Shown piece by piece: positions 2,369 to 63,858 of a stretch of 64,000 bases of DNA. Position 1 is the stretch's first letter. Each line of letters opens with the position of its first letter. The DNA is from an uncultured Actinomycetota bacterium (GTDB lineage Bacteria > Actinomycetota > Actinomycetes > JADGOV01), in assembly GCA_963814355.1 (NCBI GenBank), contig CAWFCZ010000018.1:854590-918589 (forward strand), in the 5' to 3' direction. The position numbers and the translations under genes are program-made. The notes under the pieces were generated by a model. It was not told the origin of the DNA and searched no databases. It worked only from the letters and a program-made list of their open reading frames with translations.

Positions 2369-2980
2369 CTACTGCTCATCCCAGCTGTAGCCCAGGTGCT
2401 TGCGCCCGCGTGGCGGGACGCCGCCCACCGCCTCCATCCCCCACGCCGACCAGCCCGCGCGCGGATAGCGCGCGAACAGTTCGAGGTACGGTCTCGGGGA
2501 GCAAGCCTCGATGATCTCGTACTGCTCGTCGGGTTTCCGGGAATGCTCGCGCTTGCGGGTCTCGATGATGTTGACCTGCCGTCGGGCCGGGTCGAGGGTG
2601 CGCAGGCTGCCCCGCACGCCGAAGAGCACCAACTCGGTGACGTTGCGGAAGTAGAAGCCGACGCCGCGCCCGTCCGGGCCGCCGTCCTTGCGCCGCTTGG
2701 CCCACACCAGATTGCTGACGTAGCGGAAGCCCCAAGCGTTCAGCACGCGCAGCCCCTCGGGCAGCAGTGCGTTGGGCACCCACAGGTACAGGTGAGCGCT
2801 GTCGGCCAGGACGTCGGCGACCGGCAGGGCCGCGATCGCGTCGGTGGCCATCGTGTCGTAGCGGTCGAGCCGGCGATGCTCGGGCGCCACCTTGCCGGTC
2901 CGGTTCTGGAACCGCCAGGCGGGGTCAGCCAGCACCGTGGTGAACCCTCCGTCTACCGTCGGGAGCGCCGGGAGGGCCAT
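2369..2980 (-). CDS. MT-A70 family N6-adenine DNA methyltransferase (orphan)
   Basis: Start at M50 of the ORF (MALPALPTVDGGF...). It has a DPPW-type catalytic motif variant (LADPAWRF) and the downstream conserved block (YLWVPNALL...GFRYVSNLVWAKRRKDGG...FYFRNVTELVLFGVRG) characteristic of the MT-A70/Ime4-like family. No restriction endonuclease gene is adjacent. Confidence 0.6.
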   Translation of the reverse strand: MALPALPTVDGGFTTVLADPAWRFQNRTGKVAPEHRRLDRYDTMATDAIAALPVADVLADSAHLYLWVPNALLPEGLRVLNAWGFRYVSNLVWAKRRKDGGPDGRGVGFYFRNVTELVLFGVRGSLRTLDPARRQVNIIETRKREHSRKPDEQYEIIEACSPRPYLELFARYPRAGWSAWGMEAVGGVPPRGRKHLGYSWDEQ

Positions 2981-3364
2981 GGCGGGTGCCGCGTCGGCTC
3001 GCAGCGCGGCCACCCGCACCCTCGTGCGCCGTGGCTGCGCACAGCGGGTCGTCGGCTGCGCATTGGCCGGCCCGGCGGCCGCACTCCCCGCGCGCTGTGC
3101 GGTGGAATCACGGTTCAGGGCCGGCATGGCTCAGAGATACCACGCGAGGAAGCCTCCGTCTGGGAGGCTACGGCCGGGCAGGAGGAGTCGCCGGGGCGCC
3201 AGTTGACTGAGACTCTCTCCCCCGAACGGCCATTCATGAGCCGAGCCCGGTGCAAAACCCCGCGCAATGGAGTACACGTAGCGAACAGCCCGGGGCCAGA
3301 CGCCAACGGGGTGCACACGCGGGCGGCGGAGGTCTCGGTGCGGGTTTCGGGTTTGCGGACAACC

Positions 3365-14916: not shown

Positions 14917-15266
14917 AAGCTTCCTTCTCTGGGCCTTTCGAAGTTTGGCCGCGACACCATCGCCGCCGGGTACCCGGGCGGAAGCCGCGGGCGGTGCGGG
15001 CGGTGCTCCTCACGGTGCGGTTGGTTTGGGCTTCGGTACCGGCGTTCGTGATCCCGGTTTCGTCAACCGCATCGCTCCGGCGGCCTCGAAGACACTACGG
15101 TCTTGCACATCGACTCTGGGCTTAGGTTCCGCCGCTGCTGCTCGCACCGTTCGTGGTCCGCGAAACGGCCCGTCGTCCCGGCGAGCCGCTACGGGCACGG
15201 CACGGAGCGCCCGGCAAATACAGCGGAACCGCGCCACTGTGTGACAACTCGCGTACAGTGGGCAAT

Positions 15267-17141: not shown

Positions 17142-17176
17142 ACCACCCCACCAGGCCCAACCAGGGGCGAACCGCC

Positions 17177-17430
17177 ATGCTGCCCCGGGTGCCGTTCGCG
17201 TGCGCGCTGGTGGAGGTCGATGCCCGCACCGGATTCTGCGACCACCTGGTCCACGCCGGCGGGAAGGTCACCCGGCCGGCCGAGTTGACACGCAACCTGA
17301 TCTACGTGATCGTCGCCGGGGCCGCCAACATGGGCCTGACCGCGATGGCCGAGTCCTGCGGCGTGCCCGACGACGTGCTCGCCTGGACCGCCGAGTGGTA
17401 CTTCCGGCCGAGAGACCCGCATCCGAGCCG
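17177..17430 (+). pseudogene. Tn3-family transposase (TnpA) internal fragment, remnant
   Basis: LVEVDARTGFCDHLVHAGGKVTRPAELTRNLIYVIVAGAANMGLTAMAESCGVPDDVLAWTAEWYF matches the conserved Tn3 TnpA block (..GFT..F.H......NlGl.kMA.....y..laW...W..r.ety). Only about 85 aa are present, with no start context or remainder of the roughly 1,000-aa protein and no inverted repeats seen. Confidence 0.5.
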
Positions 17431-17453
17431 AGGAATGCGCGAGTTACCCCCCG

Positions 17454-20400: not shown

Positions 20401-20747
20401 GCTACTCCTCGCTCAGCCGCCTGCACGCACTGCCGGTCGACGTGGTCAAGATCGACAAGTCGTTCATCGACGCCCTCGCCGGCGGCGGCCCGGCGCCTCT
20501 GGTCGCCGCCACCATCTCCATGGCGCACAGCCTCGGGTTGCAGACCGTGGCCGAAGGTGTCGAAACGACCGACCAGCTGCCGTTCCTACGCCTCCACGGC
20601 TGCGACAACGTGCAGGGCTACCTGTTCGGCCGCCCCCTCGCCGCCGACGCGGTCACCGCGTTGCTGCGTCAGCGAGGCACCGGCAAGCTATGGGCGAATC
20701 CCGCCACGCCGGCCGGCCGTCCCCGCACTCAACCCCGGAGTGACTGA
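17454..20747 (+). CDS. Membrane-anchored PAS-PAS-GGDEF-EAL c-di-GMP signalling protein
   Basis: About 9-10 predicted TM helices in the N-terminal 350 aa. Two PAS domains (NAPIGMVWADLAGTFVQVNPAFCRMVG...). GGDEF (RLGGDEFAV). EAL (ELTE, DDFGTGYSSL, KIDKSFI). The true start may be the in-frame GTG at 17631; the upstream part overlaps the Tn3 remnant frame region. Confidence 0.75.
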   Translation: MGEPMLCLIGRIVGRSPVTQDRGLRYRPGRGEPSPDAITEPGGVAGHPAPAARRGAGGSVTGFAAAVVASTAAVGGVAVVLSAGADAGLAQGVGDVASLLAAVVAVLACARAARRSGPDAREWALLALAVGVWAAGALTWAVYGFTRHHVHSFPSAADIGFLGYSAPAVVALLAFRRRAVRAVSRVPGVLDGLVVGTAILFTGWAFVLGPQYYSASAGWSARATGLAYPLVDAAIASLVLVLAMRQVHGARLPWALVGCGLLALTVTDSIYVSLTLSGRIGLTGTALSAGWVAAFLLVAVATVAPHRLTAPGRVRRIAVGQEFLPYVPVAIALIVAAYERVFSDPVLLGVGALLLVLVGIRQFLITVERVALTDDLEHRVARRTAELLSAREDLQDAFDNAPIGMVWADLAGTFVQVNPAFCRMVGRSRDELVGTRIGDITFPADVAASELRMSRGASSESRIPQFEKRYRHADGSGVWGEVSLLLTRDAAGAPKFFLAQIQDITERRSSAARTKANEAVFLDAVLENLDSGVIGCDAEGRPTVYNRASREQFGPLVPSLNPEFWAEHYGFYRADGITPLPTREIPLFRALSGELVVDVEMVIARKGGDPRTVVANGHAISGGDGAPLGAVVVTQDITQRRKAEAALRRQALHDPLTDLPNRALLRDRLEHAIARQARQPHPLALLLLDLDGFKIVNDSLGHQAGDEVLITLAGRLRASLRPDDTIARLGGDEFAVVLENTSEAQATSIAAQILAVIRHPISIQGRSITSDASVGITTSIGADDPETLLRNADLAMYAAKDHGKGNIQVFHASMHETVVDRLTLDAELREAVDKRQFTLAYQPIVSLITGHLQGLEALLRWNHPDHGVTSPSAFIPRAEATGLIVPIGRGVLREACRQARAWRQILPDAQDLTISVNLSVRQLQDPAILDIVAAALSDTGLPAGQLQLEITESVVGRRGDIVAILHRLHATGVHLAIDDFGTGYSSLSRLHALPVDVVKIDKSFIDALAGGGPAPLVAATISMAHSLGLQTVAEGVETTDQLPFLRLHGCDNVQGYLFGRPLAADAVTALLRQRGTGKLWANPATPAGRPRTQPRSD

Positions 20748-20855
20748 ACGGAAGCTGTCAAGCCGCTGGCTGCGGGGGACGATGCAGCGAGTGGCTACGG
20801 TCGGCGAGCCGGATATGTTCTGCCATTGGGGCGATGTCGCCGCTGAGGAGGGGTC

Positions 20856-21692
20856 ATGAGCGACGACCAGGGGCGATTCGCTCGGCTCGACGACCGGCGG
20901 CGTCGGTTGCCGCGGCCGCGTACGCCGAAGGGTCTCGACCCGGCGGTCGTCCTGGCGCTGCACGAAGCCACCCGCCGGCTGCTCGACGCGGTGGAACCAG
21001 CGGATGTGGTGGAGGCCGCGACGGACCTGGTCAACGAACTCGGTGGCAGCGTGGTGCCGGCCGCCCGGGCCGGTGCGGATGTGCTGCCCCTGGACCTTTC
21101 CTTCGGCTCGACCGACCCCCTGCTCCCGGCTGCCCCGCGGGCCAGCGTGGCGCGGATGCATCTCGAGACGTTGCTGCCTGCCTTCCTCGAAGACGCCCGT
21201 CGATCGGTGATGGAGTTGCGCGGTAAGAGCTCGCTGCAGAATGAGGCGACTCGGGACCATCTGACCGGGTTGCTCAACCGGCGGACGCTTGACCGACGGC
21301 TGAGCCAGCTGCGAGTCGGGGATCCAGTCGCGATCCTGGATTTGGACTTCTTCAAGCAGCTCAACGACACCGAAGGACACGCCGCCGGCGACGCCGTACT
21401 CGTCGCTTTCGGTCGGGTTGTCCGTCAGCATGTCCCCAGCGGCGACATCGCTGGCCGGTACGGCGGTGAAGAATTCGTCGTTGCCCTCCGCGGGGCGGCT
21501 CCTGCGACGCTGCTGGCCCGGCTGACCGAGATCCGGCGGGCGTGGGAAACCGTCCGGCCGTTCTCGGTGTCGTTCTCGGCCGGGGTGAGCGTCGTGACCA
21601 CTACCGGCGCCCGGGCTTTGCAGGTTGCCGACCAGGCGCTCTACGTGGCCAAACAGCGGGGGCGAAACCGAATAGAGATGGCTTCGGCGTGA
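20856..21692 (+). CDS. GGDEF-domain diguanylate cyclase with uncharacterised N-terminal sensory domain
   Basis: 278 aa. The C-terminal GGDEF domain has an intact GGEEF active site (RYGGEEFVV) and an RxxD-like I-site context. The N-terminal roughly 120 aa is of unknown function. The stop overlaps the start of the next gene (GTGA). Confidence 0.75.
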   Translation: MSDDQGRFARLDDRRRRLPRPRTPKGLDPAVVLALHEATRRLLDAVEPADVVEAATDLVNELGGSVVPAARAGADVLPLDLSFGSTDPLLPAAPRASVARMHLETLLPAFLEDARRSVMELRGKSSLQNEATRDHLTGLLNRRTLDRRLSQLRVGDPVAILDLDFFKQLNDTEGHAAGDAVLVAFGRVVRQHVPSGDIAGRYGGEEFVVALRGAAPATLLARLTEIRRAWETVRPFSVSFSAGVSVVTTTGARALQVADQALYVAKQRGRNRIEMASA

Positions 21693-22714
21693 CGGCTACA
21701 CGGCCCCTTCATGCTGTGGTGGCTCAATTCCTGGACCTCATCCGGCAGCGCGCTCCCGTGGCCGCGGCTGCTCTCGCCGTCGCGCAGCTTCAGCACGGAT
21801 ATCGACCTGACCAGGTCATCTCCGACCTGCTGGTGCCTGTGCAGGTGGAGGTTGGGCGACGTTGGCACCGCGCACTGTGGACGGCCGCGGATGAGCATCA
21901 GGCGACAGCGGTGACCGACGCCGCGCTGTACGGCGTCACATCTGACGGTATCCGGCCTCGGGAGATCCGGGGAACCGCGGCCGTCGCCTGCGCCGTCGGC
22001 GACTGGCATGTCCTGCCGTCACGAATGGCGGCGGAGTTGCTGCGCCTCGACGGCTGGGACGTCCTGTTCCTCGGCGGTTCGCTCCCGCCAGCGGATCTTT
22101 CCCAGTGGTTGATCGACGCCCGACCGGACGTCCTGGTGGTGTCCTGCTCGATGCCGACAACTGCCCGCAGCGTCGTGGCCACCGCGATGGCGGGGGCCGA
22201 AGTCGGCGTTCCGGTCGTCGTCGGCGGACGTGGCATGGGCCCGGACGGTAGGCGCGCGGCCGCGCTCGGCGTGCGATGGGCGGCGGACCTCAAGTGCCTG
22301 GCGGCTGCCCTAGCGGCTCCAACACCTGCCACCGCCCAACGAGAACTGGCCGAACGGCTGGAGGAGCACTCGCAGCTACTCCTGCGGCGTACGGAGATCG
22401 TCGCCGGGGCTGTCAACGAACTCGGCCGGCTGTGGCCGGCGATGTCCGCGTTCTCCGACACTCAGATGTCCCGGACCAGCGAGGACTTCGGCCATATCGT
22501 CGACTTCCTCGGGGCCGCTGTGGCCACCGATGATCCGCGTCTCTTCGGCGAGTTCGTCGATTGGCTTCGGCTGCTACTGTCCTCCCGCCATCTACCGCCA
22601 GCGGTGCTGCAGATCAGCCTGCGCGCCCTGGCCGCGGCGCTTCCCCGCGAGTTGCCGCTGGCCCCGGCGATCCTGGCCACCACCCGCGACTCGTTACCTA
22701 TGGAGGTGCGGTGA
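21689..22714 (+). CDS. Stand-alone cobalamin (B12)-binding domain protein (CarH C-terminal-like sensor module, no DNA-binding domain) with extra C-terminal helical domain
   Basis: GTG start at 21689 overlapping the upstream stop (GCGTGACGG). B12-binding_2 helical bundle with a W..EH motif (VGRRWHRALWTAADEHQATAVTD). B12-binding Rossmann domain with a DxHxx(G) variant (AVGDWHVLPSRMAAELLRLDGWDVLFLGGSLP...DVLVVSCSMP...VVVGG). Followed by about 150 aa of uncharacterised helical sequence. Confidence 0.55.
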   Translation: MTATRPLHAVVAQFLDLIRQRAPVAAAALAVAQLQHGYRPDQVISDLLVPVQVEVGRRWHRALWTAADEHQATAVTDAALYGVTSDGIRPREIRGTAAVACAVGDWHVLPSRMAAELLRLDGWDVLFLGGSLPPADLSQWLIDARPDVLVVSCSMPTTARSVVATAMAGAEVGVPVVVGGRGMGPDGRRAAALGVRWAADLKCLAAALAAPTPATAQRELAERLEEHSQLLLRRTEIVAGAVNELGRLWPAMSAFSDTQMSRTSEDFGHIVDFLGAAVATDDPRLFGEFVDWLRLLLSSRHLPPAVLQISLRALAAALPRELPLAPAILATTRDSLPMEVR

Positions 22715-23019
22715 CAGCACCGGCATTCGTCGTGACCAGTGAGGTCACTATCCCCGAAAGTGCCGCCGAGGGACTGGAGGCGGCGTTCACGGCGCGCCTC
22801 GGCGAAGTGGACAGTTTCCCCGGCTTCCAACGCCTTGAGGTCTGGCGAGACACCGCAAGCCGAGGGACGTACCTTATGGTGTCCTGGTGGGATAGCCGGC
22901 GGGACTTCACCAGCTACATGCGTTCCGCGCAACACCGGCGATCCCACCAGCGCATCCCGACCGAGCCGGTCAAGCCTCGTGGGACCGGAGTACACCGGTT
23001 CGAACGCATCTCCTGTTGA
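22711..23019 (+). CDS. Antibiotic-biosynthesis-monooxygenase (ABM) domain protein
   Basis: GTG at 22711 overlapping the upstream stop (GTGA), with GGAGGTG SD immediately upstream. A 102-aa ferredoxin-like ABM fold signature is present (FQRLEVWRD...YLMVSWWDSRRDFTSYMRSAQH). Confidence 0.55.
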   Translation: MTAPAFVVTSEVTIPESAAEGLEAAFTARLGEVDSFPGFQRLEVWRDTASRGTYLMVSWWDSRRDFTSYMRSAQHRRSHQRIPTEPVKPRGTGVHRFERISC

Positions 23020-23144
23020 CGGCTTCCATCCTGCCGTCGTAGGTGCGAACTCGACGCCGCATAATGATCGTTTCCCCGCACCCGAAAGCTTCGCACCGGA
23101 CTTGCGGCTCTCACCGCATCTCGGCTCACGCAAGCCACGGGGGC

Positions 23145-23955
23145 TCACGGCAGCCGCGTTGAAGTCCCGGGCGTCGTACCACGGCACCTGCCCGCCAGGG
23201 ACGAAGTAGAGGAGGACCAGCGCCGAGCGCTCGTTCGACCTCTCGGCATCGAAACCCAGGGACTCCAGGACCGTCGAGCGTGAGGCGAAGGTGTGCAGGC
23301 GGTCGACGACCACGGCGTTGCGAGGAGGAACATGCGGAAACGTTTGACGTACGGACCGTTGGCGAACGACCGAGGGGTGATCGCGACGAGTTGTCCGCCG
23401 GGACGAAGCGACAGCACCCCCACGGTCACGAAGGCGGCATAGAGGGTCGGGGCGTCGACCCCCATAGCGGCGAGCGTCGGTGGCCGAGTTAGTCGCCAAC
23501 TTGCCGTACGGTGGATTCATGATCACCAAGTCGTATGCGTCGTACTCGTGTGCGGTGCCCATCCCGGTGCCCGCATAGAGCAGGTCCTCGCACCGGACGT
23601 CGACCGTCACGGTTACACCCCGTTTACGCGCCCACTCGACGCACAGCGCGGCCGTCGCCTCCAGTGCCGGAAGGAGGGCCGGGTCCACCTCCACCGCCGT
23701 GACGGCTATTGTCGTTCTCGGCTTGTCCGCCACCATGCGCTGCACAAGCGCGGCCAGCAACATGCCCGACCCAGCACCCGGGTCCAAGACGCGCATGGGT
23801 CCGTCCCCGTCCGGCAGGCGCGGCATGTGTGCCATCAGGGCCGCCGCACGTTCAGGAGTGAAGAACTGGCCGAGGCGCGCCTGCTGCCTCTCGTCCAGGC
23901 TTGCGAGCGTCAAGACCCTGAGCGCCTCAGCACGTTTCAGAAGATCGTTCGCCAC
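23145..23955 (-). pseudogene. Frameshifted and 3'-truncated Eco57I/type-IIG-like N6-adenine DNA methyltransferase (restriction-modification remnant)
   Basis: N-terminal 170 aa in one frame carry motif X/I/IV of gamma-class N6-MTases (LGQFFTP..., VLDPGAGSG, MNPPYGK). Continuation (GVDAPTLYAAFVTVGVLSLRPGGQLVAITPRSFANGPYVKRFRMFLL) is in a different frame (ORF 23145..23465), then stops. The expected large C-terminal specificity/endonuclease region is absent. The remainder of the long ORF 22462..23144 is antisense read-through of the B12/ABM genes. Confidence 0.5.
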
Positions 23956-27846: not shown

Positions 27847-29115
27847 TCAGCGCCGTCGCTGGGAGCCGCGGTAGCCCGCCCATGGGTCGTAGTCGACCTC
27901 GAGTTCGGCCTGCTCGGGACGTTGCTCCTCCGGGACGTGCTGGAGGTTGATCCGCACGCGATACCACACTGAGCTGCTGCCGCGCATGCCGTCGACGAGC
28001 ACGTCGGAGTCCTCCAGCAGCGGCACCAGATCGGGGTGTTTCGCCTGCCAGGACTCGAGGCCGGCGAGCGCCTCCGGTTTCGTACGGGCTCGAGCCACCT
28101 CGACGAGCGGCATGCGGGGCGTTCGCCGCCCGGTCCCCTTCGGGGGCTTCTCCACCGGGCCGAGCCGCTCGGCCAGCGCCAGCAGTGCCTCCAGCGACCC
28201 CGGTTCGGCGTCGAACCCGGCCCACGGGTCGCCGATCTCGGCGAACCGGGCGGGCGCGGTGGCGAGCGTGTGGTCCGGCGGGCGGACCTGGCGCACCTCG
28301 TCCCAGCGCAGCGGCGTGGACACCCGCGCGTCCGGCGTGGCCCGCACCGAGTACGCCGAGGCCACCGTGCGGTCCTTGGCGTTCTGGTTGAAGTCGACGA
28401 ACACCCCCTGACGTTCCTCCTTCCACCACCGGCTCGTCGCCAGCCCGGGCGCGCGGTGCTCCACCTCACGGGCCACGGCCTCCGCCGCCGACCGCACCTC
28501 GGGAAAGGTCCAGACCGGGTCGAGGCGGGCGTAGATGTGGAAGCCCCGGGAGCCGGACGTCTTCGGCCACGCCGACAGTCCCACGTCGGTAAGGACCTCC
28601 CGGACGACGAGCGCGACGTCGATGATCTGCCGCCACTCCACGCCCGGCACCGGATCCAGGTCGATACGCAGCTCGACGGGGTGCTCGAGGTCCTCAGCCA
28701 ACACCGGGTGCGGGTTGAGGTCCACGCAGCCGAGGTTGACCACATAGGCCAGCCCAGCCGCGTCGCGCACCACGATCTCGGCCGCCGAGGTCCCCGACGC
28801 GTAATGCAGCTCAGCGACCCCCAACCACTCCGGCCGCGTCGCCGGGGCCCGCTTCTGGAACACCGCCTCCTCGCCGATGCCCTTGACGAACCGCTTGAGG
28901 ATCATCGGCCGGCCGGCCACCCCGCGCAGCGCCCCCTCGGCGACCGACAAGTAGTAGCGGACCAGGTCCAGCTTGGTGTACCCGGCGGCGGGAAACACCA
29001 CCTTGTCCGGGTTGGTGATCACCACCTGGCGGCCGCACAGCTCGAGCACCCGCTCCCTCGATGTCGCCACACTGACAGACTCAACCGTGATCGACCACGG
29101 CGTCCAGCCCGCCAC
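27847..29115 (-). CDS. Stand-alone NHEJ DNA polymerase/primase domain (LigD-Pol, PolDom) with ~110-aa C-terminal extension
   Basis: Colinear with LigD polymerase domains (VVITNPDKVVFPAAGYTKLDLVRYY..., SGSRGFHIY catalytic Ser/His region, VDFNQNAKDRTVASAYSVRA). No ligase or 3'-phosphoesterase domain is fused. The extra C-terminal region is of unknown function. Confidence 0.7.
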   Translation of the reverse strand: MAGWTPWSITVESVSVATSRERVLELCGRQVVITNPDKVVFPAAGYTKLDLVRYYLSVAEGALRGVAGRPMILKRFVKGIGEEAVFQKRAPATRPEWLGVAELHYASGTSAAEIVVRDAAGLAYVVNLGCVDLNPHPVLAEDLEHPVELRIDLDPVPGVEWRQIIDVALVVREVLTDVGLSAWPKTSGSRGFHIYARLDPVWTFPEVRSAAEAVAREVEHRAPGLATSRWWKEERQGVFVDFNQNAKDRTVASAYSVRATPDARVSTPLRWDEVRQVRPPDHTLATAPARFAEIGDPWAGFDAEPGSLEALLALAERLGPVEKPPKGTGRRTPRMPLVEVARARTKPEALAGLESWQAKHPDLVPLLEDSDVLVDGMRGSSSVWYRVRINLQHVPEEQRPEQAELEVDYDPWAGYRGSQRRR

Positions 29116-39031: not shown

Positions 39032-40216
39032 TTGGAGGGCGAGAACGTCCTGACGCTGTCGCGCGCCCCGGACTCGGACACCGCGCGCTCCGCCGGCCGG
39101 CCCGGCTCGCTGGCCCTCTCCGCCACGGCGATCTTCCTGGCGAGCCGGCTCCTCACCAGCGCCGGCATTCTGCTCGCGCACTGGGTTTCGGGACTCAGCA
39201 TCCGCATGATCGTGGTGAAGTGGGATGCCCACTGGTACCTCGCGGTCGCCCAGCACGGGTACCCGACCAGCACTGCGCCACTGCCCGGTCAAGCCGAGCT
39301 CCGGCTGGCTTTTTTCCCGCTGTTCCCGCTGCTGATCTCCCCCGTCGGCGGCCTGGGGTCCAACGCGATCCTGGCGGCGACCGCATTGGGCACCGCGTTC
39401 GGGCTGGCCGCCACCATCGCCGTGGCGTTCCTGGCCCGGACGGTGGGGCTGCGCGCGGGTCGGGACGCGGTCGGCGCGCAGCGCAGCGCGCTGGCGGCGG
39501 TGGCCCTGTTCGCCTGCTTTCCGGGCGCCATCGCGCTCTCCCTGGCCTATACCGAGGGCGTCGCGCTGGTCGCCGTGGTCGGCTGCCTGCTCGCACTGCT
39601 GCACCGGCGCTGGCTGAGCGCCGGGCTGTGCGCCGCGCTGGCCACCGCCACCAGGCCCAACGCGCTGGCTCTGCTCGCCGCCTGCGCCTGGGCCTGCGCC
39701 GAAGCTCTACGACAGCGCCGGGAATGGCGCTCCCTGCTGGCGCCGCTGCTCGCTCCGCTCGGCGCCCTGGGCTATCTCGCGTACCTGCAGGTTCACGTCG
39801 GGGACTGGCGGGCCTGGCACGAGGTCGAGGCCCGAGCGTGGCACCAGAACATCGACTTCTCCGCCCAACTGCTGCGGCTGCTCAGCCCGGCGGAGATCGT
39901 CAAGCATGCGGCCCGGACCGACTGGAACTACTTCTCCATCGTGGCCGGGCTGATCTTCGTCGTGATCTCCGTACTCTGCCTGCGCCGCTGGCGACCGCCG
40001 GGAGTGCTGGTCGCCTACACCGCGGCCGTGCTGGCGTTGTGTTTCATCTCCAGCCACGTCGGCCCCCGGCCTCGGATGGTGCTGGTGGCCGTACCGCTGT
40101 TCATGGCCTGCGCCGAACGCCTGTCCCGGGTGCAGTACCGGTGGCTGCTGGGGAGTTGCGCCGGGCTGACCGTGGTCATGAGCTATTTCGTGTCGATGGG
40201 CCGGATCATTCCCTGA
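39032..40216 (+). CDS. Integral-membrane GT-C fold glycosyltransferase (PIG-V/PimE-like mannosyltransferase family)
   Basis: 394 aa, about 9-10 TM helices. Conserved luminal-loop motif KWDAHWYLAVAQHGY near the N-terminus. The track-defined start (39032) is a TTG/GTG-type codon and the exact start is uncertain. Confidence 0.45.
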   Translation: MEGENVLTLSRAPDSDTARSAGRPGSLALSATAIFLASRLLTSAGILLAHWVSGLSIRMIVVKWDAHWYLAVAQHGYPTSTAPLPGQAELRLAFFPLFPLLISPVGGLGSNAILAATALGTAFGLAATIAVAFLARTVGLRAGRDAVGAQRSALAAVALFACFPGAIALSLAYTEGVALVAVVGCLLALLHRRWLSAGLCAALATATRPNALALLAACAWACAEALRQRREWRSLLAPLLAPLGALGYLAYLQVHVGDWRAWHEVEARAWHQNIDFSAQLLRLLSPAEIVKHAARTDWNYFSIVAGLIFVVISVLCLRRWRPPGVLVAYTAAVLALCFISSHVGPRPRMVLVAVPLFMACAERLSRVQYRWLLGSCAGLTVVMSYFVSMGRIIP

Positions 40217-41423
40217 CCGCGGCCGGCGCCGGCGCGGCGCTACCGGACCGAGGTGTGACCCCCGGTGGGGCAAGTGCCGGCATCGGGGACGCCAGGGCCG
40301 CTCGCACCGCCAGCCCGCCGGCGACCACCAGCACTGCGTTGCGGACCGCGAGCAGCAGGGCGGAGCCGACCGCACCGTGGATCAGCCCGACGTACCAGAT
40401 CGGGTACAGCCACTGGGTGAGCCCGCAGGCCAGCACCAGCAGACCGGCCGTCCGCCGTTGCCGGCTGGCCGGGTTGCTCACCGCAAGCGCGGCCAGGCCG
40501 AGCGCCCAGACCAGGTATTGCGGGCTGAGCACCCGGGCGACCAGCAGCACGGCGAGCAGCCCGGCCAGGCCGAGGTCGAGATTGCCGGGCCGCCGCCAGG
40601 CCAGCCCGAGGACGGCAAGCACCACCACGGCGCTGGCCACCGTGGTGAGGGCGACCACGACCGACACGCCCGGTCCGTGCACCTGGTAAGCCCCGTACTC
40701 GCGCACCACCCGGATCCCCGACGCACCGAACGCCCGGGCAAGCACGTACGGGGTGGCGGCCAGCGTCTCGGTCTGCAGGCCCCGAGCCTCCTGGTTGTGC
40801 CGGAAGTCCAGACCCTCGCCGAGCCGCCCCCCGGCCGCCAGCCCGACGACGATGACCCCGCCCACGGCGAGCGCCCCCGCGGCGGCCCGACGCCGCCGGG
40901 CGATCAGCGGGAACAGCAACACCGGCCACACCTTGACCGCCGCGCCGAGACCGAGGAGCGCGCCGGCCAGCCCGGACCGCGAGCCCGACACGCTCCCGGC
41001 AGCCGGTCCGGATGCCGGCCTGGTGGCTACCGCCAGGGCGGCCACCGCGAGCAGCGTCGGCGCGGTGTCGAAGCGGTTTTCCACGATCGGACCCAACGCG
41101 GTCGTGCCGAGGATCCACACCCAGGCGCCGGCCGGGCTGCCGCCGGCAGCGGCCCGGCGCGCCAGCACGGCCAGCACCAGCGCGTCGCCGATCAGTGCGA
41201 GGGCGACGAAGGACGGGTAGTAGCGCAGCGGGCTCAGGCCGGGCAGGGCCAACACACCGGCCGCGCCGGGCGGGTACTGCCAGGTCGGATCACCCAGGGG
41301 GAAGTGGCCGGAAACCAGGGTTGACGCCCACCCCGCGTACAGCCGGACGTCTCCGGTGATCCCGGCGTGGTGCGGGTACCCGGACCAGCCGGGCGCGGCC
41401 ACCAACAGCGCCCGGGTGGCCAC
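40206..41423 (-). CDS. Polytopic membrane glycosyltransferase (DUF2029 / GT87-like)
   Basis: 405 aa, more than 10 TM helices, with a Gly/Ala-rich membrane domain typical of actinobacterial GT87/DUF2029 proteins. Convergent with the preceding GT-C gene. Confidence 0.45.
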   Translation of the reverse strand: MATRALLVAAPGWSGYPHHAGITGDVRLYAGWASTLVSGHFPLGDPTWQYPPGAAGVLALPGLSPLRYYPSFVALALIGDALVLAVLARRAAAGGSPAGAWVWILGTTALGPIVENRFDTAPTLLAVAALAVATRPASGPAAGSVSGSRSGLAGALLGLGAAVKVWPVLLFPLIARRRRAAAGALAVGGVIVVGLAAGGRLGEGLDFRHNQEARGLQTETLAATPYVLARAFGASGIRVVREYGAYQVHGPGVSVVVALTTVASAVVVLAVLGLAWRRPGNLDLGLAGLLAVLLVARVLSPQYLVWALGLAALAVSNPASRQRRTAGLLVLACGLTQWLYPIWYVGLIHGAVGSALLLAVRNAVLVVAGGLAVRAALASPMPALAPPGVTPRSGSAAPAPAAVRE

Positions 41424-41525: not shown

Positions 41526-42800
41526 TCACCCGGAGGGCCGTACCGCTCCGGCGTATTGCGGCCACCACACCGGTTCCTCGCGGACCAACGCGCCGGTGTG
41601 GGGTGCATCGATCATCATGCCCGACCCGACGTAGATGCCCACATGGTGGATCGGGCTGCCGAAGAAGACCAGATCGCCGGAGATCAGCTCCGAGCGGCTC
41701 ACCGGGCGACCCTGGTTGATCTGGGTACCGGTGTAGTGCCCCAGATAGACCCCAGCCTTGGCCCACACGTATTGGGTGAGGCCCGAGCAGTCGAAGGCAT
41801 CGGGTCCGGCGGCCGCCCAGACGTAGGGCTTGCCGATCTCCCGGTACGCCCAGGCCACCGCCACCGCGGCACCGCCCGACCCCAGCCGAGGGGTGGTGAA
41901 CGTCGCGGCCGGGGTGCCGGCCGAGTTCGGCCGATTCGCGCTGGTCCGGGCTGCGGTGGACGCGGACCGGAACGCCGACGCGGCGTGCGCCTGCGCCGCC
42001 CGTTCGGTGGCCAGGGCGGCCGCCCGCGCCTTCGCCGCCGCCAGCGCCTTGGCGGCCACGGCCACGTCCACCGCGTGCCTGGCGGCGCTCGCCGAGGCGA
42101 GAGCCGCCTGGGCCTGGGCCACCAGCTGGGCCTGGGCATCCTGCAGTTGGCCGAGAAGTTGCTGCTCGCGGGCGGCGGCGGTGAGCACGGCGTCGCGCTG
42201 CCGCCGCTTGTCCGCGGTGAGCTGCCGCTGCCGGGTCACAGCGATGTCGGCCGCGAGCTTGGCGAACGCCTGCTCGTGCTTGGCGACTGCGAGCTGCGAC
42301 AGACTGTCCTGCTGGACCCGGGCCACGGCGTCCAGGGTGACCGCCCGGTCCAGCAAGGTGGCGGGTCCGGCCGCGTCGGTGAGCAGTTCGAACTGCGACA
42401 GCCCGCCGCTTTGGTAGGCCTCGACGGCGACCGCGCCGGCCCGGGATCGCAGCCGAGCCAGCTCCGCGGTTGCCCTCGCCAACCGGGCGCGGGCCGCCCC
42501 GGCGATCCGATTGGCCCAGGCCAGCTGCTCCACCGCGCCGTCGTAGGCCTCGGCGGCGATCTCCGCCCGCACGTTCAGGGCGTCCAGTTGGCGCTGCACG
42601 GAGGCGATGTGCGTCCGCTCCGCGGCGACGCGGGCTCGGGCGCTGGTGGCGGCCGCGGCGGCCGCCGCCGCCTTCGCTCTGGCGTCGGAGACCTGATCCG
42701 CGACCGCGGCCGTTGACGAGGGCACGGTGGTCGCCGTCAGGGCGGCGAGGAGCACACCTCCGGTCAGGGTGCGCGCTCGAGAGCTGAGCGGCAGCTGCAC
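41526..42800 (-). CDS. Secreted NlpC/P60 peptidoglycan endopeptidase with long coiled-coil N-terminal domain (RipA-like)
   Basis: GTG start at 42800 with an AGGAG SD 6 nt upstream. Signal peptide (LTGGVLLAALTATTVPSSTAAVA). About 250 aa of Ala/Gln-rich coiled coil. C-terminal NlpC/P60 with a catalytic Cys (DCSGLTQYVW) and His (HHVGIYVG). Confidence 0.7.
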   Translation of the reverse strand: MQLPLSSRARTLTGGVLLAALTATTVPSSTAAVADQVSDARAKAAAAAAAATSARARVAAERTHIASVQRQLDALNVRAEIAAEAYDGAVEQLAWANRIAGAARARLARATAELARLRSRAGAVAVEAYQSGGLSQFELLTDAAGPATLLDRAVTLDAVARVQQDSLSQLAVAKHEQAFAKLAADIAVTRQRQLTADKRRQRDAVLTAAAREQQLLGQLQDAQAQLVAQAQAALASASAARHAVDVAVAAKALAAAKARAAALATERAAQAHAASAFRSASTAARTSANRPNSAGTPAATFTTPRLGSGGAAVAVAWAYREIGKPYVWAAAGPDAFDCSGLTQYVWAKAGVYLGHYTGTQINQGRPVSRSELISGDLVFFGSPIHHVGIYVGSGMMIDAPHTGALVREEPVWWPQYAGAVRPSG

Positions 42801-43013
42801 GCTTCGCTCCTGGGGATCTCGGGGCTCAAACGGGCCAACCGTACGCGCACATCGATCATCCGTCACCTGTCTGGCGGAATAACCTAGCGAAACTGGGTGG
42901 GTTTCGGTAGGTCTGATGGCACACCCCGTTTGATCCGGCGCGGTGCGCGGCAGTCGCCGGCGGACATCGAGCCCTCGGCCCGGCCCGGCCCCGGCTCGGG
43001 ATAGCGTTTCCCG

Positions 43014-43676
43014 GTGCCGACCGAGACCCCCACCGCGGAGCCTTTCGTCCCGGCAGGCACCGACCTGGCGGGCCTGGCGGCCGCCGCCGCGGACTGTCGC
43101 GGCTGCCATCTGTACAGCAACGCCACCCAGACCGTCTTCGGGGAAGGCCCGGCGACCGCGCGCGTCGTGCTGATCGGCGAGCAGCCGGGTGATGTCGAGG
43201 ACCGGCGCGGGCGGCCGTTCGTCGGCCCGGCCGGTGCGCTGCTGGATCGCGCGCTCGCCGACGGCGGCCTGGACCGGGATGCCGCGTACGTCACGAACGC
43301 CGTCAAGCACTTCAAGTTCACCATGGACAGCGGCGGCAAGCGCCGGATCCACGCCAAGCCGGACGCCTGGGAGGTCAACGCCTGCCGGCCGTGGTTGCAC
43401 GCCGAACTCGGGCTGCTGGACCCGGAGGTGGTGCTCTGCCTCGGCGCCACCGCGGCGCAGGCGATCTTCGGGTCGTCGTTTCGGGTGACCAAGTCCCGGG
43501 GTGTGCTGCTGCCTTGGCCGGCACAGGAGGAGGACGGGGTTCAGTCCCCGTACGCGCTGGCGACCATCCACCCGTCCGCGGTGTTGCGGGCCTCCGACCG
43601 CGAGCAGGCCTACGCCGGCCTGGTCGCCGACCTCACCGTGGTGGCCGAGTTCCTGCCGGGCCGGACGACGCCCTGA
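43014..43676 (+). CDS. udgX: UdgX-type uracil-DNA glycosylase (family-4-derived, covalent-crosslinking subtype)
   Basis: Carries all three UdgX-diagnostic features: motif A GEQPG (not GE[AC]PG), the R-loop insertion KRRIH, and motif B HPSAVLR. The Fe-S cluster Cys ligands are retained (CRGC...C). Confidence 0.7.
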   Translation: MPTETPTAEPFVPAGTDLAGLAAAAADCRGCHLYSNATQTVFGEGPATARVVLIGEQPGDVEDRRGRPFVGPAGALLDRALADGGLDRDAAYVTNAVKHFKFTMDSGGKRRIHAKPDAWEVNACRPWLHAELGLLDPEVVLCLGATAAQAIFGSSFRVTKSRGVLLPWPAQEEDGVQSPYALATIHPSAVLRASDREQAYAGLVADLTVVAEFLPGRTTP

Positions 43677-43686
43677 GCGGCCAGCG

Positions 43687-44328
43687 GTGAGCGTCGAGGT
43701 GTCGGCGCGCCCGCGGCTGCGCGGCGCCTCCCATGCCCTGGCTGCGGTGGCCGCGGTACCCGCCGGAGTGTGGTTGGTCGGCCGAGCACCCTCAGCCGCC
43801 AGTCGGCTGGCCGCCGTGGTCTACGCCGTCACGGCCACGGCACTGTTCGCCGTCAGCGCGTTGTACCACCTTGGTCGCTGGAACGGCGCCGCCCGGCGCC
43901 GCGCCAAGGCCGCCGACCACGTGACGATCTTCTGCTACATGGCTGGCTCCTACGGTCCGCTCGGGGTGCTGCGGCTGTCCGAACCCGCGGCCGCGACCTG
44001 GCTGGGCGCGCTGTGGGTGGGCGCCCTGGTCGGCGCCGTGGTCAAGGTCCGTACGCTGGACCGCCTCGGCGGGCCGGCCGACGCCCTGTACGCCGTCGTC
44101 GGCGGCTCGGCGATCCTGCTGCTGCCAGCGTTCGTCCACCGGCTGACCGGGGCGGAGCTGGCGCTGCTGCTGGGCGGGCTGCTCTGCTACGGCTTGTCGG
44201 CGTACTGCCTGAAATTGCGCCGGCCCAATCCCTGGCCGGCCACATTCGGCTACCACGAGTGCGCCCACCTGTGGGTGGTCGGGGGCGCAGTCAGCCACGT
44301 GGCGTTCTACGCCATGCTGTTCCGGTGA
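43687..44328 (+). CDS. Hemolysin-III / PAQR family channel protein (YqfA-like)
   Basis: GTG at 43687. Seven-TM protein with conserved His motifs (ALYHLGRW..., HECAHLWV). Confidence 0.65.
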   Translation: MSVEVSARPRLRGASHALAAVAAVPAGVWLVGRAPSAASRLAAVVYAVTATALFAVSALYHLGRWNGAARRRAKAADHVTIFCYMAGSYGPLGVLRLSEPAAATWLGALWVGALVGAVVKVRTLDRLGGPADALYAVVGGSAILLLPAFVHRLTGAELALLLGGLLCYGLSAYCLKLRRPNPWPATFGYHECAHLWVVGGAVSHVAFYAMLFR

Positions 44329-45026
44329 TGGCGGGTCCGGCACCGGGGGCAGGTCCGGTGCCGAGGACAGGCCCGGTGAGGCCCGGGCACGACTTCGAGC
44401 CGGTCTGGCTGGTGGGCATCCAGGTCCTGGACGGCTACGTACGGGCCGCGTTGCGGCTGCGTATCACCGGGCTGGAGCACCTGCCCCGCTCCGGCGCGGC
44501 CCTGCTGGTCGCCAATCACGTCTCTTACCTCGACCCGGTTGTGCTGATCGTGGTCGGCCACCGGGCGGGCCGGCGGGTACGGGTGCTCAGCGTGCAGGAA
44601 GCGTTCGAGCGGCCCGGCAGCGGGTTTTTCCTGCGCGCCGGACGACACATCCCGGTCGGCGCGGATCCGGCTGATCGGATGGTGGCGATCCGCCGGGCCC
44701 GGGCCGCGCTGCACCGCGGGGAGGTGGTGCTGATCTACCCGGAGGGCACGATCGCCAGCGGCACCGAACAGCGGGCGGCCCGGGGTGGAGCCGGCCTGCT
44801 CGCGCTGACCAGCGGGGTGCCGGTCATCCCGATACGAACCTGGGGCCTGGAGCGCGGCGCGGCGCGCTGCTGGCACCGCCGGCGGGCGAGCGTGGTGGTC
44901 GGCCCGCCGGTGGACCTCACGCCGGCGAACCAGATGTCCGGGCGCCGGCGGTACGAGGCGGCCGCAGCCCTGGCCCTCGACGCCGTCCGCGCCCTGCGGC
45001 CGCCCGAACCGAGCAGCCGGGACTGA
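44325..45026 (+). CDS. plsC: 1-acyl-sn-glycerol-3-phosphate acyltransferase (LPLAT/PlsC family)
   Basis: Start overlaps the HlyIII stop (GTGATG). Acyltransferase motif I NHVSYLDP and motif III IYPEGT are present. Confidence 0.65.
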   Translation: MMAGPAPGAGPVPRTGPVRPGHDFEPVWLVGIQVLDGYVRAALRLRITGLEHLPRSGAALLVANHVSYLDPVVLIVVGHRAGRRVRVLSVQEAFERPGSGFFLRAGRHIPVGADPADRMVAIRRARAALHRGEVVLIYPEGTIASGTEQRAARGGAGLLALTSGVPVIPIRTWGLERGAARCWHRRRASVVVGPPVDLTPANQMSGRRRYEAAAALALDAVRALRPPEPSSRD

Positions 45027-45239: not shown

Positions 45240-45893
45240 TCAGGGCCCGAGCCGTTCCAGGACCCAGCTGTCGGTGCCTCGGCGGTAGCGCAGCCGGTCG
45301 TGCAACCGGTCGTCGCGACCCTGCCAGAACTCCAGTGAGTCGGGAGCCACCCGAAAGCCTCCCCAGAACGGCGGCAGCGGCACCGCCGGGTCGTCGTCGT
45401 CGTCGGCACCGAAACGGTCGGTCACCTCGGCGAGGCGGGCCAACAGTTCGGCACGCGAGGTGAGCACCGCCGACTGCGGCGAAGCCCAGGCCCCGAGCCG
45501 TGATCCCCGCGGGCGTTCGGCGAAGTACGCCTCGCTCTCGGCCGTGGTGGTACGCGTCACGCTGCCTTCCACCCGCACCTGACGTTCCAGCTCGTGCCAG
45601 GGGAAGAGCAGCGCCGCCCGCGGGTTGGCCGCCAGCTCGGCTGATTTGCGGGAGTCGTAGTGGGTGTAAAACACGAATCCGCCCTGGTCGTAGCCCTTCA
45701 GCAGCACCATTCGGGCACTCGGGGCACCGTCCGCGGTGGCCAGCACCATCGCATTGGGTTCCCGCAGGCCGGCGGCCACCGCGGCGGCGAACCAGCGGTC
45801 GAACTGCGCCAGCGGGTCGGGATCGGCGTCCTGCTCGGAGAGGCCGCCTGCCAGGTACGCCCGCCGCATCGCCGCCGCCGCATCGTTGGTCAC
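45240..45893 (-). CDS. pdxH: Pyridoxamine 5'-phosphate oxidase
   Basis: 217 aa. FMN-binding split-barrel with conserved [14 protein letters not shown] and a C-terminal (F)WQGR..RLHDR motif. Confidence 0.85.
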
Positions 45894-45935: not shown

Positions 45936-48235
<2,300 letters not shown>

Positions 48236-60368: not shown

Positions 60369-60628
60369 CTACCGCACGCCGACGGAGACGAAGTCCCAGG
60401 CGTGCGCCGGGCGGGCCAGCCACGCCGGCGGCGGCCCGGGCAGCTCGACGGAATCCCCGGCCCACCAGGTCAGCACCACCACCCGGTCCTCGGCGCCGGT
60501 GAAGACCTCGGCATGGTCGAACCCGGCCTCGGCGGCCAACGCCGGGATGCCCACGTCGAACAACCAGGCCACCAGCGCGGCTGCCTCGTCATCGCCGGCG
60601 GCCCGGGCCTCCCACATCCGGACCCTCA
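60369..60628 (-). CDS. Small hypothetical protein translationally coupled to tsaD
   Basis: ATGA overlap with the tsaD stop. 86 aa ([27 protein letters not shown]...). Function unknown. The rest of the long ORF 60369..61613 is antisense artefact. Confidence 0.35.
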
Positions 60629-61666
60629 TGTCAGCTCCATCCCCGGGTCGGCGGGCAGGTCGAGCGGGTCCGGCGGGACCCCGGCGGAGACCAGCAGCGA
60701 CCCGAGAACGGCGACCATCGCCCCGTTGTCGGTACACAGCGCCGGGCGGGGCACCCGCAGCCGGATCCCGGCGGCGGCGGCGCGGGTCTGCGCCAGGGCG
60801 CGCAGCCGGGAGTTCGCCGCCACCCCCCCGCCGAGCAGCAGGTCGCCGATGCCGAGGTCGCGGCAGGCCCGGACCGCCTTGCCGGTGAGTACGTCGGCGA
60901 CCGCCTCCTGGAACGACGCCGCCACGTCGGCCAGTGGCACCGGCCGCCCGGCCGATCGGGTGGCCTCCACCCACCGAGCCACCGCGGTCTTCAGCCCGGA
61001 GAAGGAAAAGTCGTACGCGGCATCCCGCGGGCCGGTGAGCCCGCGCGGGAAGTCGATCGCGCAGGCGTCCCCGGCGGCGGCCTCCCGGTCGATCGGCGGG
61101 CCGCCGGGAAAGGGCAGCCCGAGCACCCGGGCCACCTTGTCGAAGGCCTCGCCAGCGGCGTCGTCCAGCGTCTCCCCGAGGGTGGTCACCGGCGCGGTGA
61201 CGTCGCGGACCGCCAGCAACGAGGAGTGCCCGCCGGAGACCAGGAGCGCGACGCAGGGGCTCGGCAGCGGGCCGTGCTCGACGGTGTCCACCGCGACGTG
61301 GGCGGCGAGGTGGTTGACGCCGTACAGCGGCCTGTCCAGCCCCAGCGCGTACGCCTTGGCACCCGCCACCCCGACGAGCAGCGCGCCAGCCAGGCCGGGA
61401 CCCGCCGTGACCGCGATCGCGTCCAGTTGCGATGGCCGGACGCGGGCGGCGGCCAGTGCCCGGCGCACCGTCGGCACCAGCGCCTCCAGGTGCGCCCGGC
61501 TGGCCACCTCGGGCACCACCCCGCCGAAGCGGGCGTGCTCGGCCACGCTGGAGGCGACCTCGTCGGCGAGCAGCGTCCCGCCGCGGACGATGCCCACGCC
61601 GGTCTCGTCGCACGAGGTCTCGATGCCCAGCACCAGCGGGCCGCCGGGTCGCCGGCCCTCAGCCAC
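60626..61666 (-). CDS. tsaD: tRNA N6-adenosine threonylcarbamoyltransferase TsaD (Kae1/Gcp)
   Basis: 346 aa. [16 protein letters not shown]-terminus and His/His metal motif characteristic of TsaD. Confidence 0.85.
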
Positions 61667-62102
61667 GGCGCATCACGAGCGCGTCGGTGCCGCTGGGCTG
61701 GTAGTACCGCCGACGCCGGCCGATGTCGGTGAAACCGAACCGGCGATAGAGCGCCTGGGCACGGTCGTTGTCCACCCGTACCTCCAGCAGCACCCGCCCC
61801 GCCCCCCGCCGCTCGGCCTCGGCCAGCAGCTCGGCGAGCAGCGCGCCACCCATCCCCCGGCCCCACTGCGCCCGGGCTACGGCGAGGGTCTGGATGAACC
61901 CCTCGCCGCCGGCGGCGGCCATCCCGCCGTAGCCGACGATCCGCTCCTCCCGGGGGGGCTGGACGGCAAGGTAGTGCCGGGTGTCGTGCTGCGCCAGCTC
62001 CGACCAGAACGCCGGCTCGCTCCAGCCATCGGCGCCGAAGTGCTCGGCTTCGATCTCGGCGGCGGCGGCCAGGTCCCACCAGCGCAGCGGGCGCAGGGTC
62101 AC
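61659..62102 (-). CDS. rimI: Ribosomal-protein-alanine N-acetyltransferase RimI
   Basis: GTG start at 62102 ([11 protein letters not shown]...). GNAT motif present ([15 protein letters not shown]). Sits in the conserved tsaB-rimI-tsaD position. Confidence 0.75.
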
Positions 62103-62728
62103 CGGCTGACCGGCTTCGGGGCACCCGGCGGTACCGCGTCCGGGCGGCGCAGGTAGAGCGGCGTCAGCGGGTCCGGCGGCGCGCCGCGCGCCGCCCTCGT
62201 GGCGACCAGCGCGGCCAGGTCGGCCGCCCGCGGCCAGGCCGCCTCGCCGGGCAGCAGGTCCGGGTACAGGGCGGTCACCGGGCCGATGACCGGTCGGCCG
62301 CCGAGGGGTACCTCCGCCGGGCGGGCGACCGCCGGACCGGCCACTCGCGCGCCGCCGGCGTCGTAGGCCGCCCAGTACACCTCGCGGCGGCGGGCATCGG
62401 TGGCCACCACCACCGCGCCGCGGTTGTGGGCCAGCACATCGAGCGAGCACTCGCCGTAGGCCGGTACGCCCAGCGCGTCGCCCAGCCCGGCGGCGGTGAC
62501 CAGCCCGACCCGCAATCCGGTGAACGGGCCGGGTCCGGTGCCCACCGCGATGGCGCCGATCGCGGCCCGGGGCGTGCCGGTGGCTGCCAGCAGTTCGGCG
62601 ATCAGCGGAGCGAGTAGCTCACCGTGCCGGTTGACCCCGACCTCGCAGCGCTCACCCACCACGACGCCGTCGGCCAGCAACGCGACGGTGACGGCCGGGG
62701 TGGCGGTGTCCAGGGCGAGGAGGAGCAT
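62099..62728 (-). CDS. tsaB: tRNA threonylcarbamoyladenosine biosynthesis protein TsaB (YeaZ)
   Basis: Start ATG 62728 (MLLLALDTATPAVTVAL...). Inactive Kae1 paralog pattern. Confidence 0.75.
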   Translation of the reverse strand: MLLLALDTATPAVTVALLADGVVVGERCEVGVNRHGELLAPLIAELLAATGTPRAAIGAIAVGTGPGPFTGLRVGLVTAAGLGDALGVPAYGECSLDVLAHNRGAVVVATDARRREVYWAAYDAGGARVAGPAVARPAEVPLGGRPVIGPVTALYPDLLPGEAAWPRAADLAALVATRAARGAPPDPLTPLYLRRPDAVPPGAPKPVSR

Positions 62729-62819
62729 CGGGCACCAGGGTAGGGGCAGCGCTCGCGTCAGCAGCCGGCCGACATCGACCGCCCCGGTACGGCCGCCGCC
62801 CTGGCGGCTTGGGCGGGCC

Positions 62820-63272
62820 TCAGCCCGGCAGCGCCACGCCGGCCCAGCGCGCCCCGTACCCGGTGACCCGCACCTCGCGGCCGCCCTGCACCGGGTTGGC
62901 CGACCGGGAGATCCGTACCTCCAGACGGTGCGCCGCCAGGCCCTCGGCCAGGCCTTCGCCCCACTCCACCAGCGTGACCGACTCCTCGAGGGCGGCGTCC
63001 AGGTCGAGGTCGTCGAGTTCGGCGACCGAACCGAGCCGGTAGGCGTCGACATGGACCAGCGGCACCCGCCCGCCCCGGTGTACCCGGGTCAGGACGAAAG
63101 TCGGCGAGCGAACCGGCCGAGGCACGCCGAGACCGGTTCCGACACCCTGGGCGAGGGTGGTCTTGCCGGCGCCGAGTTCCCCGATGAGCAGGACCAGGTC
63201 ACCCGGCCGCAGCCGCTCGGCGAGCGCCGACCCAAAGGCGCGCATCGCGGTCGCCGTGGCCACCGTCACCAT
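62820..63272 (-). CDS. tsaE: tRNA threonylcarbamoyladenosine biosynthesis ATPase TsaE (YjeE)
   Basis: Start ATG 63272 (MVTVATATAMRAFG...). Walker A GELGAGKTT. Confidence 0.75.
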   Translation of the reverse strand: MVTVATATAMRAFGSALAERLRPGDLVLLIGELGAGKTTLAQGVGTGLGVPRPVRSPTFVLTRVHRGGRVPLVHVDAYRLGSVAELDDLDLDAALEESVTLVEWGEGLAEGLAAHRLEVRISRSANPVQGGREVRVTGYGARWAGVALPG

Positions 63273-63282
63273 GCCGGGCCGT

Positions 63283-63858
63283 TCACCCGGCGAGCCGGGC
63301 CGCCAGCGCCAGATCCGCCCGGAGGAGCGCCATCGGCTCCCCGGCCGGGCCGAAGCGCAGCGCGGCGGACGGGTGGTAGGTCGGCAGCACCGCCCGGCCG
63401 TCGACGTCGTGGGGGCGGCCGCGGACGTCGGCCAGCCGCAGCCCGTGGCCGAGGAACGCCGCGGTCGCGGTGCCCCCGAGTGAGACGACGATCCGGGGAT
63501 CGAGGGCAGTGAGCTGGGCGTCCAGCCAGTCCCGGCAGGTGGCCGCCTCGGCCCGGGTCGGCGCCCGGTTGCCCGGCGGCCGGCACTTGACCACGTTGGT
63601 GACCGCCACTGTGCCCCGGTCCAGGCCGACCTCGCCGAGCAGCCGGTCCAGCAGCCGACCGGCCCGGCCGACGAACGGCCGGCCGGCGGCGTCTTCCTGG
63701 GCACCGGGCGCCTCGCCGACCAGCAGCAGCCGGGCCGGTACCGGCCCGGAACCGACCACCACGCGGTGCCGGCCGGCGGCCAGCGGGCACGCCGTGCAGG
63801 ACGCGATGCGGGCGACCAGCGCCGGATAGTCCCCGCCCGGGTCGCTCAGGGCGGGCAC
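63283..63858 (-). CDS. Family-4 uracil-DNA glycosylase (canonical UdgA-type)
   Basis: Motif A GEAPG (LLLVGEAPGAQED). Fe-S Cys ligands present (CTAC...C...C). Motif B HPSAAL. The start may be slightly downstream of 63858, which would avoid a 13-nt overlap with the next gene. Confidence 0.65.
   Translation of the reverse strand: MPALSDPGGDYPALVARIASCTACPLAAGRHRVVVGSGPVPARLLLVGEAPGAQEDAAGRPFVGRAGRLLDRLLGEVGLDRGTVAVTNVVKCRPPGNRAPTRAEAATCRDWLDAQLTALDPRIVVSLGGTATAAFLGHGLRLADVRGRPHDVDGRAVLPTYHPSAALRFGPAGEPMALLRADLALAARLAG

Follow-up and report, generated by a model that had tools for sequence, protein, structure and literature searches.

A gene encoding a predicted UdgX protein was located at 43014-43676 on the forward strand of the 64,000-nucleotide stretch of DNA that was analysed (the window). 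The udgX coding sequence begins with a GTG start, ends with a TGA stop and specifies 220 aa. Divergent from it on the reverse strand (41526-42800) is a gene for an NlpC/P60 peptidoglycan endopeptidase (Pfam NLPC_P60) with a long Ala/Gln-rich N-terminal region, and a spacer of 213 nt (42801-43013) separates the two. Downstream on the forward strand are hlyIII (43687-44328, Pfam HlyIII), whose GTG start lies 10 nt after the udgX stop, and a plsC-type acyltransferase gene (44376-45026, Pfam Acyltransferase), followed by pdxH on the reverse strand (45240-45893) and citrate synthase on the forward strand (45936-47126), both identified by Pfam. The placement of hlyIII and plsC downstream of udgX, put forward in an earlier sequence-only reading of this DNA, was borne out by Pfam and by the gene calls on a public contig encoding the identical UdgX protein. 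A second uracil-DNA glycosylase (UDG) gene is present on the reverse strand at 63283-63858.

The divergent neighbour had been described as a RipA-like cell-wall hydrolase. A cell-wall hydrolase is indeed encoded on the opposite strand, but the closest relative is RipC (MT2245, 8idc_E), the FtsEX-associated endopeptidase. RipC was the sole full-length solved match (residues 61-410, nearly full length) while RipA and RipB matched in the catalytic domain only, and RipC-like is therefore the better label. Convergent genes for polytopic membrane glycosyltransferases (a PIG-V-like mannosyltransferase and a GT87 member, 39032-41423) adjoin the NlpC/P60 gene and form a cell-envelope block beside udgX.

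The remainder of the window is ordinary actinobacterial chromosome and includes greA, trkHA, guaA, folD, groES/EL and tsaEBD-rimI. A 1526-aa open frame at 2396-6976 on the forward strand carries many RTX calcium-binding nonapeptide repeats in its C-terminal 648 aa, and is overlapped on the opposite strand by an MT-A70-family methyltransferase ORF (2372-3127), the boundaries of both being putative. Three consecutive cyclic-di-GMP turnover proteins, with the domain orders GAF-GGDEF-EAL, PAS-GGDEF-EAL (1097 aa) and GGDEF only, are encoded at 15153-21689 on the forward strand and are followed by a putative B12-binding-domain protein (21542-22711). The end of the latter ORF is overlapped on the other strand by a candidate ORF of 497 aa (22465-23955, reverse strand) with a weak match to N6 DNA-methylases (26.8 bits). 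A standalone LigD-type primase-polymerase domain protein of 422 aa is encoded at 27850-29115 on the reverse strand, with no adjacent ligase or Ku gene detected in the Pfam pass.

The udgX frame was intact and all catalytic residues were present. The exact protein is also present in NCBI/ENA on a 1.27-Mb contig and in one Logan assembly. The public contig with the identical protein carried an independent gene call with the same start and stop as the window udgX, and the NlpC/P60 gene start at 42800 also matched the call on that contig. The GC3 of udgX was 0.93, within the 0.85-0.95 recorded for other window genes, and its local GC of 0.71-0.74 was like that of the flanks, which together indicate a native gene of the expressed type. 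The ORF proposed from the letters is thus a real one, as its coordinates and GTG start were reproduced and its similarity to the UdgX chains in the PDB (E 3e-71) is far beyond chance.

A phmmer search of all PDB sequences gave the first 24 places among distinct sequences to M. smegmatis UdgX (MsmUdgX) or its point mutants (E 2.5e-71 to 1.7e-68), ahead of the classical family-4 UDGs of Thermus, Thermotoga and Sulfolobus (E 3e-26 to 1e-22). BLASTP against wild-type MsmUdgX gave 59% identity and 71% positives, and Pfam reported the generic UDG superfamily domain only. Among the NCBIfam models, TIGR03914 (TIGR03914.1, 'UdgX family uracil-DNA binding protein') scored the window protein at 242 bits, above the curated cut-off of 189.95. 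The broader family-4 model TIGR00758 was also passed (131.4 bits, cut-off 125.3) while the equivalog NF040953 was not (115.8 against 250).

The UdgX family was defined by Sang et al. in 2015 from the motifs GEQPG and HPS(S/A)(L/I)L and an extra stretch, AAGGKRRIH (PMC4787834). The BLASTP alignment to MsmUdgX was gap-free over window residues 8-166, so that Msm numbering there runs 4 below that of the window protein, and KRRIH at 109-113 (43338-43352) falls on Msm K105-H109. The alignment to mycobacterial UdgX that the sequence-only reading had proposed as a check therefore shows KRRIH to be positionally equivalent to the R-loop, and the motifs it had quoted were all found in the protein, where GEQPG spans residues 55-59, KRRIH 109-113 and HPS 186-188. 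Motif A, GEQPG (43176-43190), supplies E56 and Q57, the equivalents of Msm E52, the glutamate of the catalytic dyad, and of Msm Q53, which stands where family 4 has Ala or Gly. The segment from N95 to H99 (43296-43310) includes N95, which lies within VTNAVKH and corresponds to the uracil-recognition residue Msm N91, and H99, which corresponds to Msm H95; K98, H99 and K101 of the VKHFKF segment are the counterparts of Msm K94, H95 and K97. The R-loop insertion DSGGKRRIH (residues 105-113, 43326-43352) aligns without a gap to Msm AAGGKRRIH at 101-109, with R111 and H113 at the positions of Msm R107 and H109. Motif B, HPSAVLR (residues 186-192, 43569-43589), comes after one 4-residue indel, conforms to the published pattern HPS(S/A)(L/V)(L/V)R and places H186 and R192 at Msm H178 and R184.

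Conservation of these positions was consistent across relatives. In an alignment with 52 homologs (66-91% identity) the functional residues were all invariant, including N95, R110, R111 and H113, and in 80 species-representative loci GEQPG, VKH and HPS(A/S)(V/I)LR each recurred in 80/80 while xRRxH was present in at least 75/80. By sequence, the mutationally defined UdgX residues E56/Q57, N95, R111, H113, H186 and R192 are all conserved in the window protein.

The iron-sulfur site required a correction to the earlier description, in which the protein was credited with the family-4 Fe-S cysteines. Three of these are present: C28 and C31 of the CRGC motif (residues 28-31, 43095-43106), which is aligned to Msm CRGC, invariant in the 52 homologs and predicted to supply the first two ligands (Msm C24 and C27), and Cys124 (43383-43385), which is aligned to Msm C120, also invariant and the predicted fourth ligand. 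The remaining position is occupied not by cysteine but by His99, as in MsmUdgX, for which the replacement of one C by H at the Fe-S site has been described (PMC4787834). His99, in VKH, stands where the third family-4 Fe-S cysteine, that of VKC, sits, opposite Cys92 of the window's second UDG in the pairwise alignment, and this substitution is itself a hallmark of UdgX. A set of four family-4 cysteines was thereby ruled out, and the predicted ligand set is C28, C31, H99 and C124, or three Cys and one His, all aligned and invariant. Cys142 is an extra cysteine that is not conserved.

An AlphaFold2 model of the window UdgX built with the 52 homologs had a mean pLDDT of 89.3 and a pTM of 0.88, with a pLDDT of about 81-84 in the R-loop region. 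Foldseek comparison with the PDB returned MsmUdgX entries as all of the top 30 matches (TM 0.82-0.94, rmsd 1.7-3.2 Å), and the family-4 UDGs came next with a query-normalised TM (TMq) of about 0.75. Within the model, confidence was low in a single internal stretch, the surface loop before motif B (residues ~167-176, 43512-43541), where pLDDT dropped below 50 at 171-175. Compared with MsmUdgX this loop has 4 extra residues, and it varies from homolog to homolog. As modelled, the fold is of the UdgX type and sets the R-loop beside the active site.

Sequence and model together unambiguously place the predicted product of 43014-43676 as a UdgX ortholog. UdgX proteins belong to the uracil-DNA glycosylase superfamily, arose from family 4 and carry a [4Fe-4S] cluster. 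The features found comprise the TIGR03914 score, GEQPG, the R-loop equivalents of R107 and H109, motif B, the Asn91 equivalent, the three Cys and one His and the fold, while Gln57, His99 and the 9-residue insertion depart from the feature set of a canonical family-4 enzyme (UdgA). The ortholog claim of the sequence-only reading is upheld by the curated TIGR03914 model, which the window's second UDG fails, and by a predicted fold closest to the UdgX crystal structures.

Residue functions in the prototype have been described. M. smegmatis UdgX mutants H109S/G/A/Q gain turnover while R107S and C27S are inactive (PMC4787834). In the mechanism given by Aroli et al. in 2023, H178 and N91 pull on the uracil and E52 activates H109 for its attack on C1'; the R-loop is anchored by Q53 through the K110 and K97 backbone, and R184 has the task of positioning the substrate (PMC10359453). 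Expression constructs of the prototype could not be introduced into ung- E. coli strains. The hallmark of the resulting complex is stability to SDS, heat and urea with no turnover, and it was formed by all of the natural UdgX proteins tested, namely those of M. smegmatis, M. avium, R. imtechensis and B. diazoefficiens (PMC4787834, PMC10359453).

By analogy, the window UdgX would flip the uracil of ssDNA or dsDNA into its pocket, where H186 and N95 would stabilise the leaving uracilate as the N-glycosidic bond breaks. Attack by water would be absent; the nucleophile would be the R-loop residue H113, which E56 of motif A would activate and which would attack C1' of the sugar, with Q57 anchoring the R-loop and R192 intercalating or positioning the substrate. 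The result would be a covalent, stoichiometric link of the protein to the abasic site, a single-turnover or 'suicide' reaction. It is from the characterised proteins that we infer a loaded Fe-S cluster, specificity for uracil and covalent capture of the abasic site through His113 in a single turnover. The proposed role is that of an AP-site shield, which may protect against breakage under uracil-generating stress and then be resolved by a RecA-dependent or proteolytic route. Three observations run counter to a simple transfer of function: identity to the prototype is 59% rather than near-identity, the low-confidence surface loop before motif B has 4 more residues, and Ala114 is found in the window protein where Msm has K110. 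The published contact at Msm K110, however, is made by the backbone oxygen (PMC10359453).

The second UDG of the window, which the sequence-only reading had offered as a conventional family-4 contrast on the strength of its GEAPG motif, proved to be just that. It is a protein of 191 aa with four cysteines (C21, C24, C92 and C108) and without the R-loop according to PDB, NCBIfam and alignment comparisons, and GEAPG occupies residues 48-52 (63703-63717, reverse strand). In the PDB it was matched best by two family-4 UDGs, those of T. maritima and T. thermophilus (E about 4e-44), and it passed TIGR00758 (162.7 bits, cut-off 125.3) but failed the UdgX model (156 against 190). The changes that separate the two classes are GEAPG in the paralog against GEQPG in UdgX, VKC against VKH, and PPGNR against a loop 9 residues longer ending in KRRIH. 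The paralog gene is directly upstream of a same-strand run of tsaE-tsaB-rimI-tsaD (60626-63290, reverse strand), its end meeting or overlapping the tsaE start, with groES-groEL farther downstream. This arrangement suggests co-transcription of the housekeeping UDG gene with those for t6A synthesis.

An alternative is that the window UdgX is functionally a multiple-turnover family-4 UDG that merely resembles UdgX and is redundant with the second UDG. The two proteins share 42% identity in pairwise alignment, the family-4 model TIGR00758 is passed by both, and single substitutions of Msm H109 restore turnover (PMC10359453), which makes the boundary between the behaviours a thin one. Against this, H113, R111, E56 and Q57 are kept without exception in the homologs as in the window protein, the UdgX-specific model scores well above the family-4 model (242 against 131 bits), the combination of R107 and H109 was confined to UdgX among more than 1000 sequences (PMC10359453), and every natural UdgX tested, from M. 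smegmatis to B. diazoefficiens, formed the complex. We consider a turnover enzyme very unlikely. The window gene very probably encodes a functional UdgX that crosslinks to DNA, the crosslinking being read from the conserved residues.

UdgX relatives were widespread. A scan of species-representative genomes gave at least 599 pattern matches and at least 484 confirmed UdgX relatives, and a protein database search gave at least 8000 matches, several of them already named 'UdgX family uracil-DNA binding protein' by NCBI. In large protein searches E-values do not tell UdgX from family 4. The best 80 of the at least 484 relatives were almost all from Actinomycetota and included Mycobacteriales, Frankiaceae, Acidothermaceae, Micromonosporaceae, Actinoplanes, Nonomuraea and Saccharothrix, and the closest species-representative genomes among the matches listed, with only 70% identity, were Mycobacteriales, Frankiaceae and Acidothermaceae MAGs, which places the organism approximately, in the vicinity of the Frankiaceae and Mycobacteriales MAGs. 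As in the window, pdxH and citrate synthase accompanied udgX in 25 of the 80 best loci, at a distance of about 3 kb or less except in two where it reached ~6 kb, and in one related locus udgX directly abutted pdxH. This shared synteny, seen in Mycobacteriales- and Frankiaceae-type genomes, favours vertical inheritance, with the gene keeping its place on the chromosome. An NlpC/P60 gene was near udgX in 11 of the 80 best loci. Neither hlyIII nor plsC was found beside udgX in any of the 80 related loci, even at E 1e-3, and the insertion of hlyIII-plsC between udgX and pdxH was limited to this organism and one near-identical metagenomic contig.

The sequence-only reading had called UdgX sporadic and its presence here notable. 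The distribution of the family across bacteria has been described as 'sporadic' (PMC10776899), so that the first part stands, but within this branch of the Actinomycetota the gene is common and syntenic (at least 484 genomes, 25/80 loci) and has no compositional anomaly, and its presence is expected rather than notable. A recent horizontal acquisition or a decaying relic, either of which would make udgX an oddity in this genome, might be read from the sporadic distribution and from hlyIII-plsC, whose position beside udgX in none of the 80 other genomes implies that the locus has been rearranged. Such an origin is nevertheless most improbable: the GC and GC3 values agree with those of the flanks, no tRNA, integrase or repeat signal was detected near udgX, the frame is intact with every catalytic residue kept, relatives occur in hundreds of species genomes and the pdxH-citrate synthase neighbourhood points to vertical inheritance.

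With the hlyIII start only 10 nt past the udgX stop, co-transcription of udgX-hlyIII-plsC is possible, as judged from spacing only. A sigma-70 consensus scan, which is weak for high-GC actinobacteria, found no promoter or terminator around udgX. The divergent spacer was examined for structured RNA because a c-di-AMP riboswitch is a frequent element ahead of cell-wall hydrolase genes in actinobacteria; no Rfam match was obtained at the gathering score or at E<=1, and the fold z-score of -0.88 was not unusually stable. It is conceivable, though we give the idea very little weight, that in this lineage udgX, which diverges from the gene for the RipC-like septal hydrolase, is co-transcribed with hlyIII-plsC and that its expression is thereby linked to a regulon of the envelope, division or stress. 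In that case UdgX would be an AP-site shield at particular growth transitions and would share labour with the housekeeping family-4 UDG of the tsaE-tsaD-groES operon region.

The window udgX is a further ortholog of a family that was described in 2015, had its structure solved in 2019 and is named automatically by NCBI annotation models, and it adds little biologically, bringing no progress on the purpose of UdgX in vivo. Uracil mapping and covalent DNA-protein conjugation both use UdgX proteins as reagents, and a natural variant that is 59% identical and differs in the loop before motif B could be an engineering candidate. With UdgX and a family-4 UDG side by side in one genome, the steps between the classes (Ala to Gln, Cys to His and the insertion of the loop) are also neatly illustrated.

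Three known systems bear comparison with the window protein. The SRAP/HMCES/YedK proteins, a functional analogy to UdgX, also become covalently joined to DNA at abasic sites, and the adduct is thought to shield the site from cleavage. Their fold is unrelated, and the linkage is a Cys2 thiazolidine made to a pre-existing AP site in ssDNA, unlike the histidine-C1' bond of UdgX, which is formed together with base excision. We know of no sequence relationship between the two. The family-4 UDGs (UdgA; T. thermophilus 1UI0, T. maritima 1L9G/1VK2) have the alpha/beta UDG fold and [4Fe-4S] site in common with UdgX as well as the motif A glutamate (GE.PG) and the motif B histidine, with ~30% identity between the window protein and the solved examples. 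They differ in having GE(A/G)PG, four Cys (VKC), a short P-x-N loop and turnover where the window UdgX has Gln57, His99 and His113 of the R-loop.

The closest comparison is with M. smegmatis UdgX itself (MSMEG_0265; PDB 6AJO, 6AIL, 6IOD and 8IIE among others), to which the window protein is 59% identical over its full length. The window protein, which is known from sequence only, has an N-terminus 4 residues longer, 4 further residues in the loop before motif B, Ala114 for Lys110 and the extra Cys142, and lies in a genomic context unlike that of MsmUdgX. Both are standalone single-domain proteins of similar length (220 and 209 aa) in which neither GEQPG nor the GGKRRIH core of the R-loop differs and motif B reads HPSAVLR in the window and HPSSLLR in Msm. 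The equivalents of N91, K94, H95 and K97 and the three Cys and one His are common to both, and the predicted fold agrees at a TM of about 0.9.
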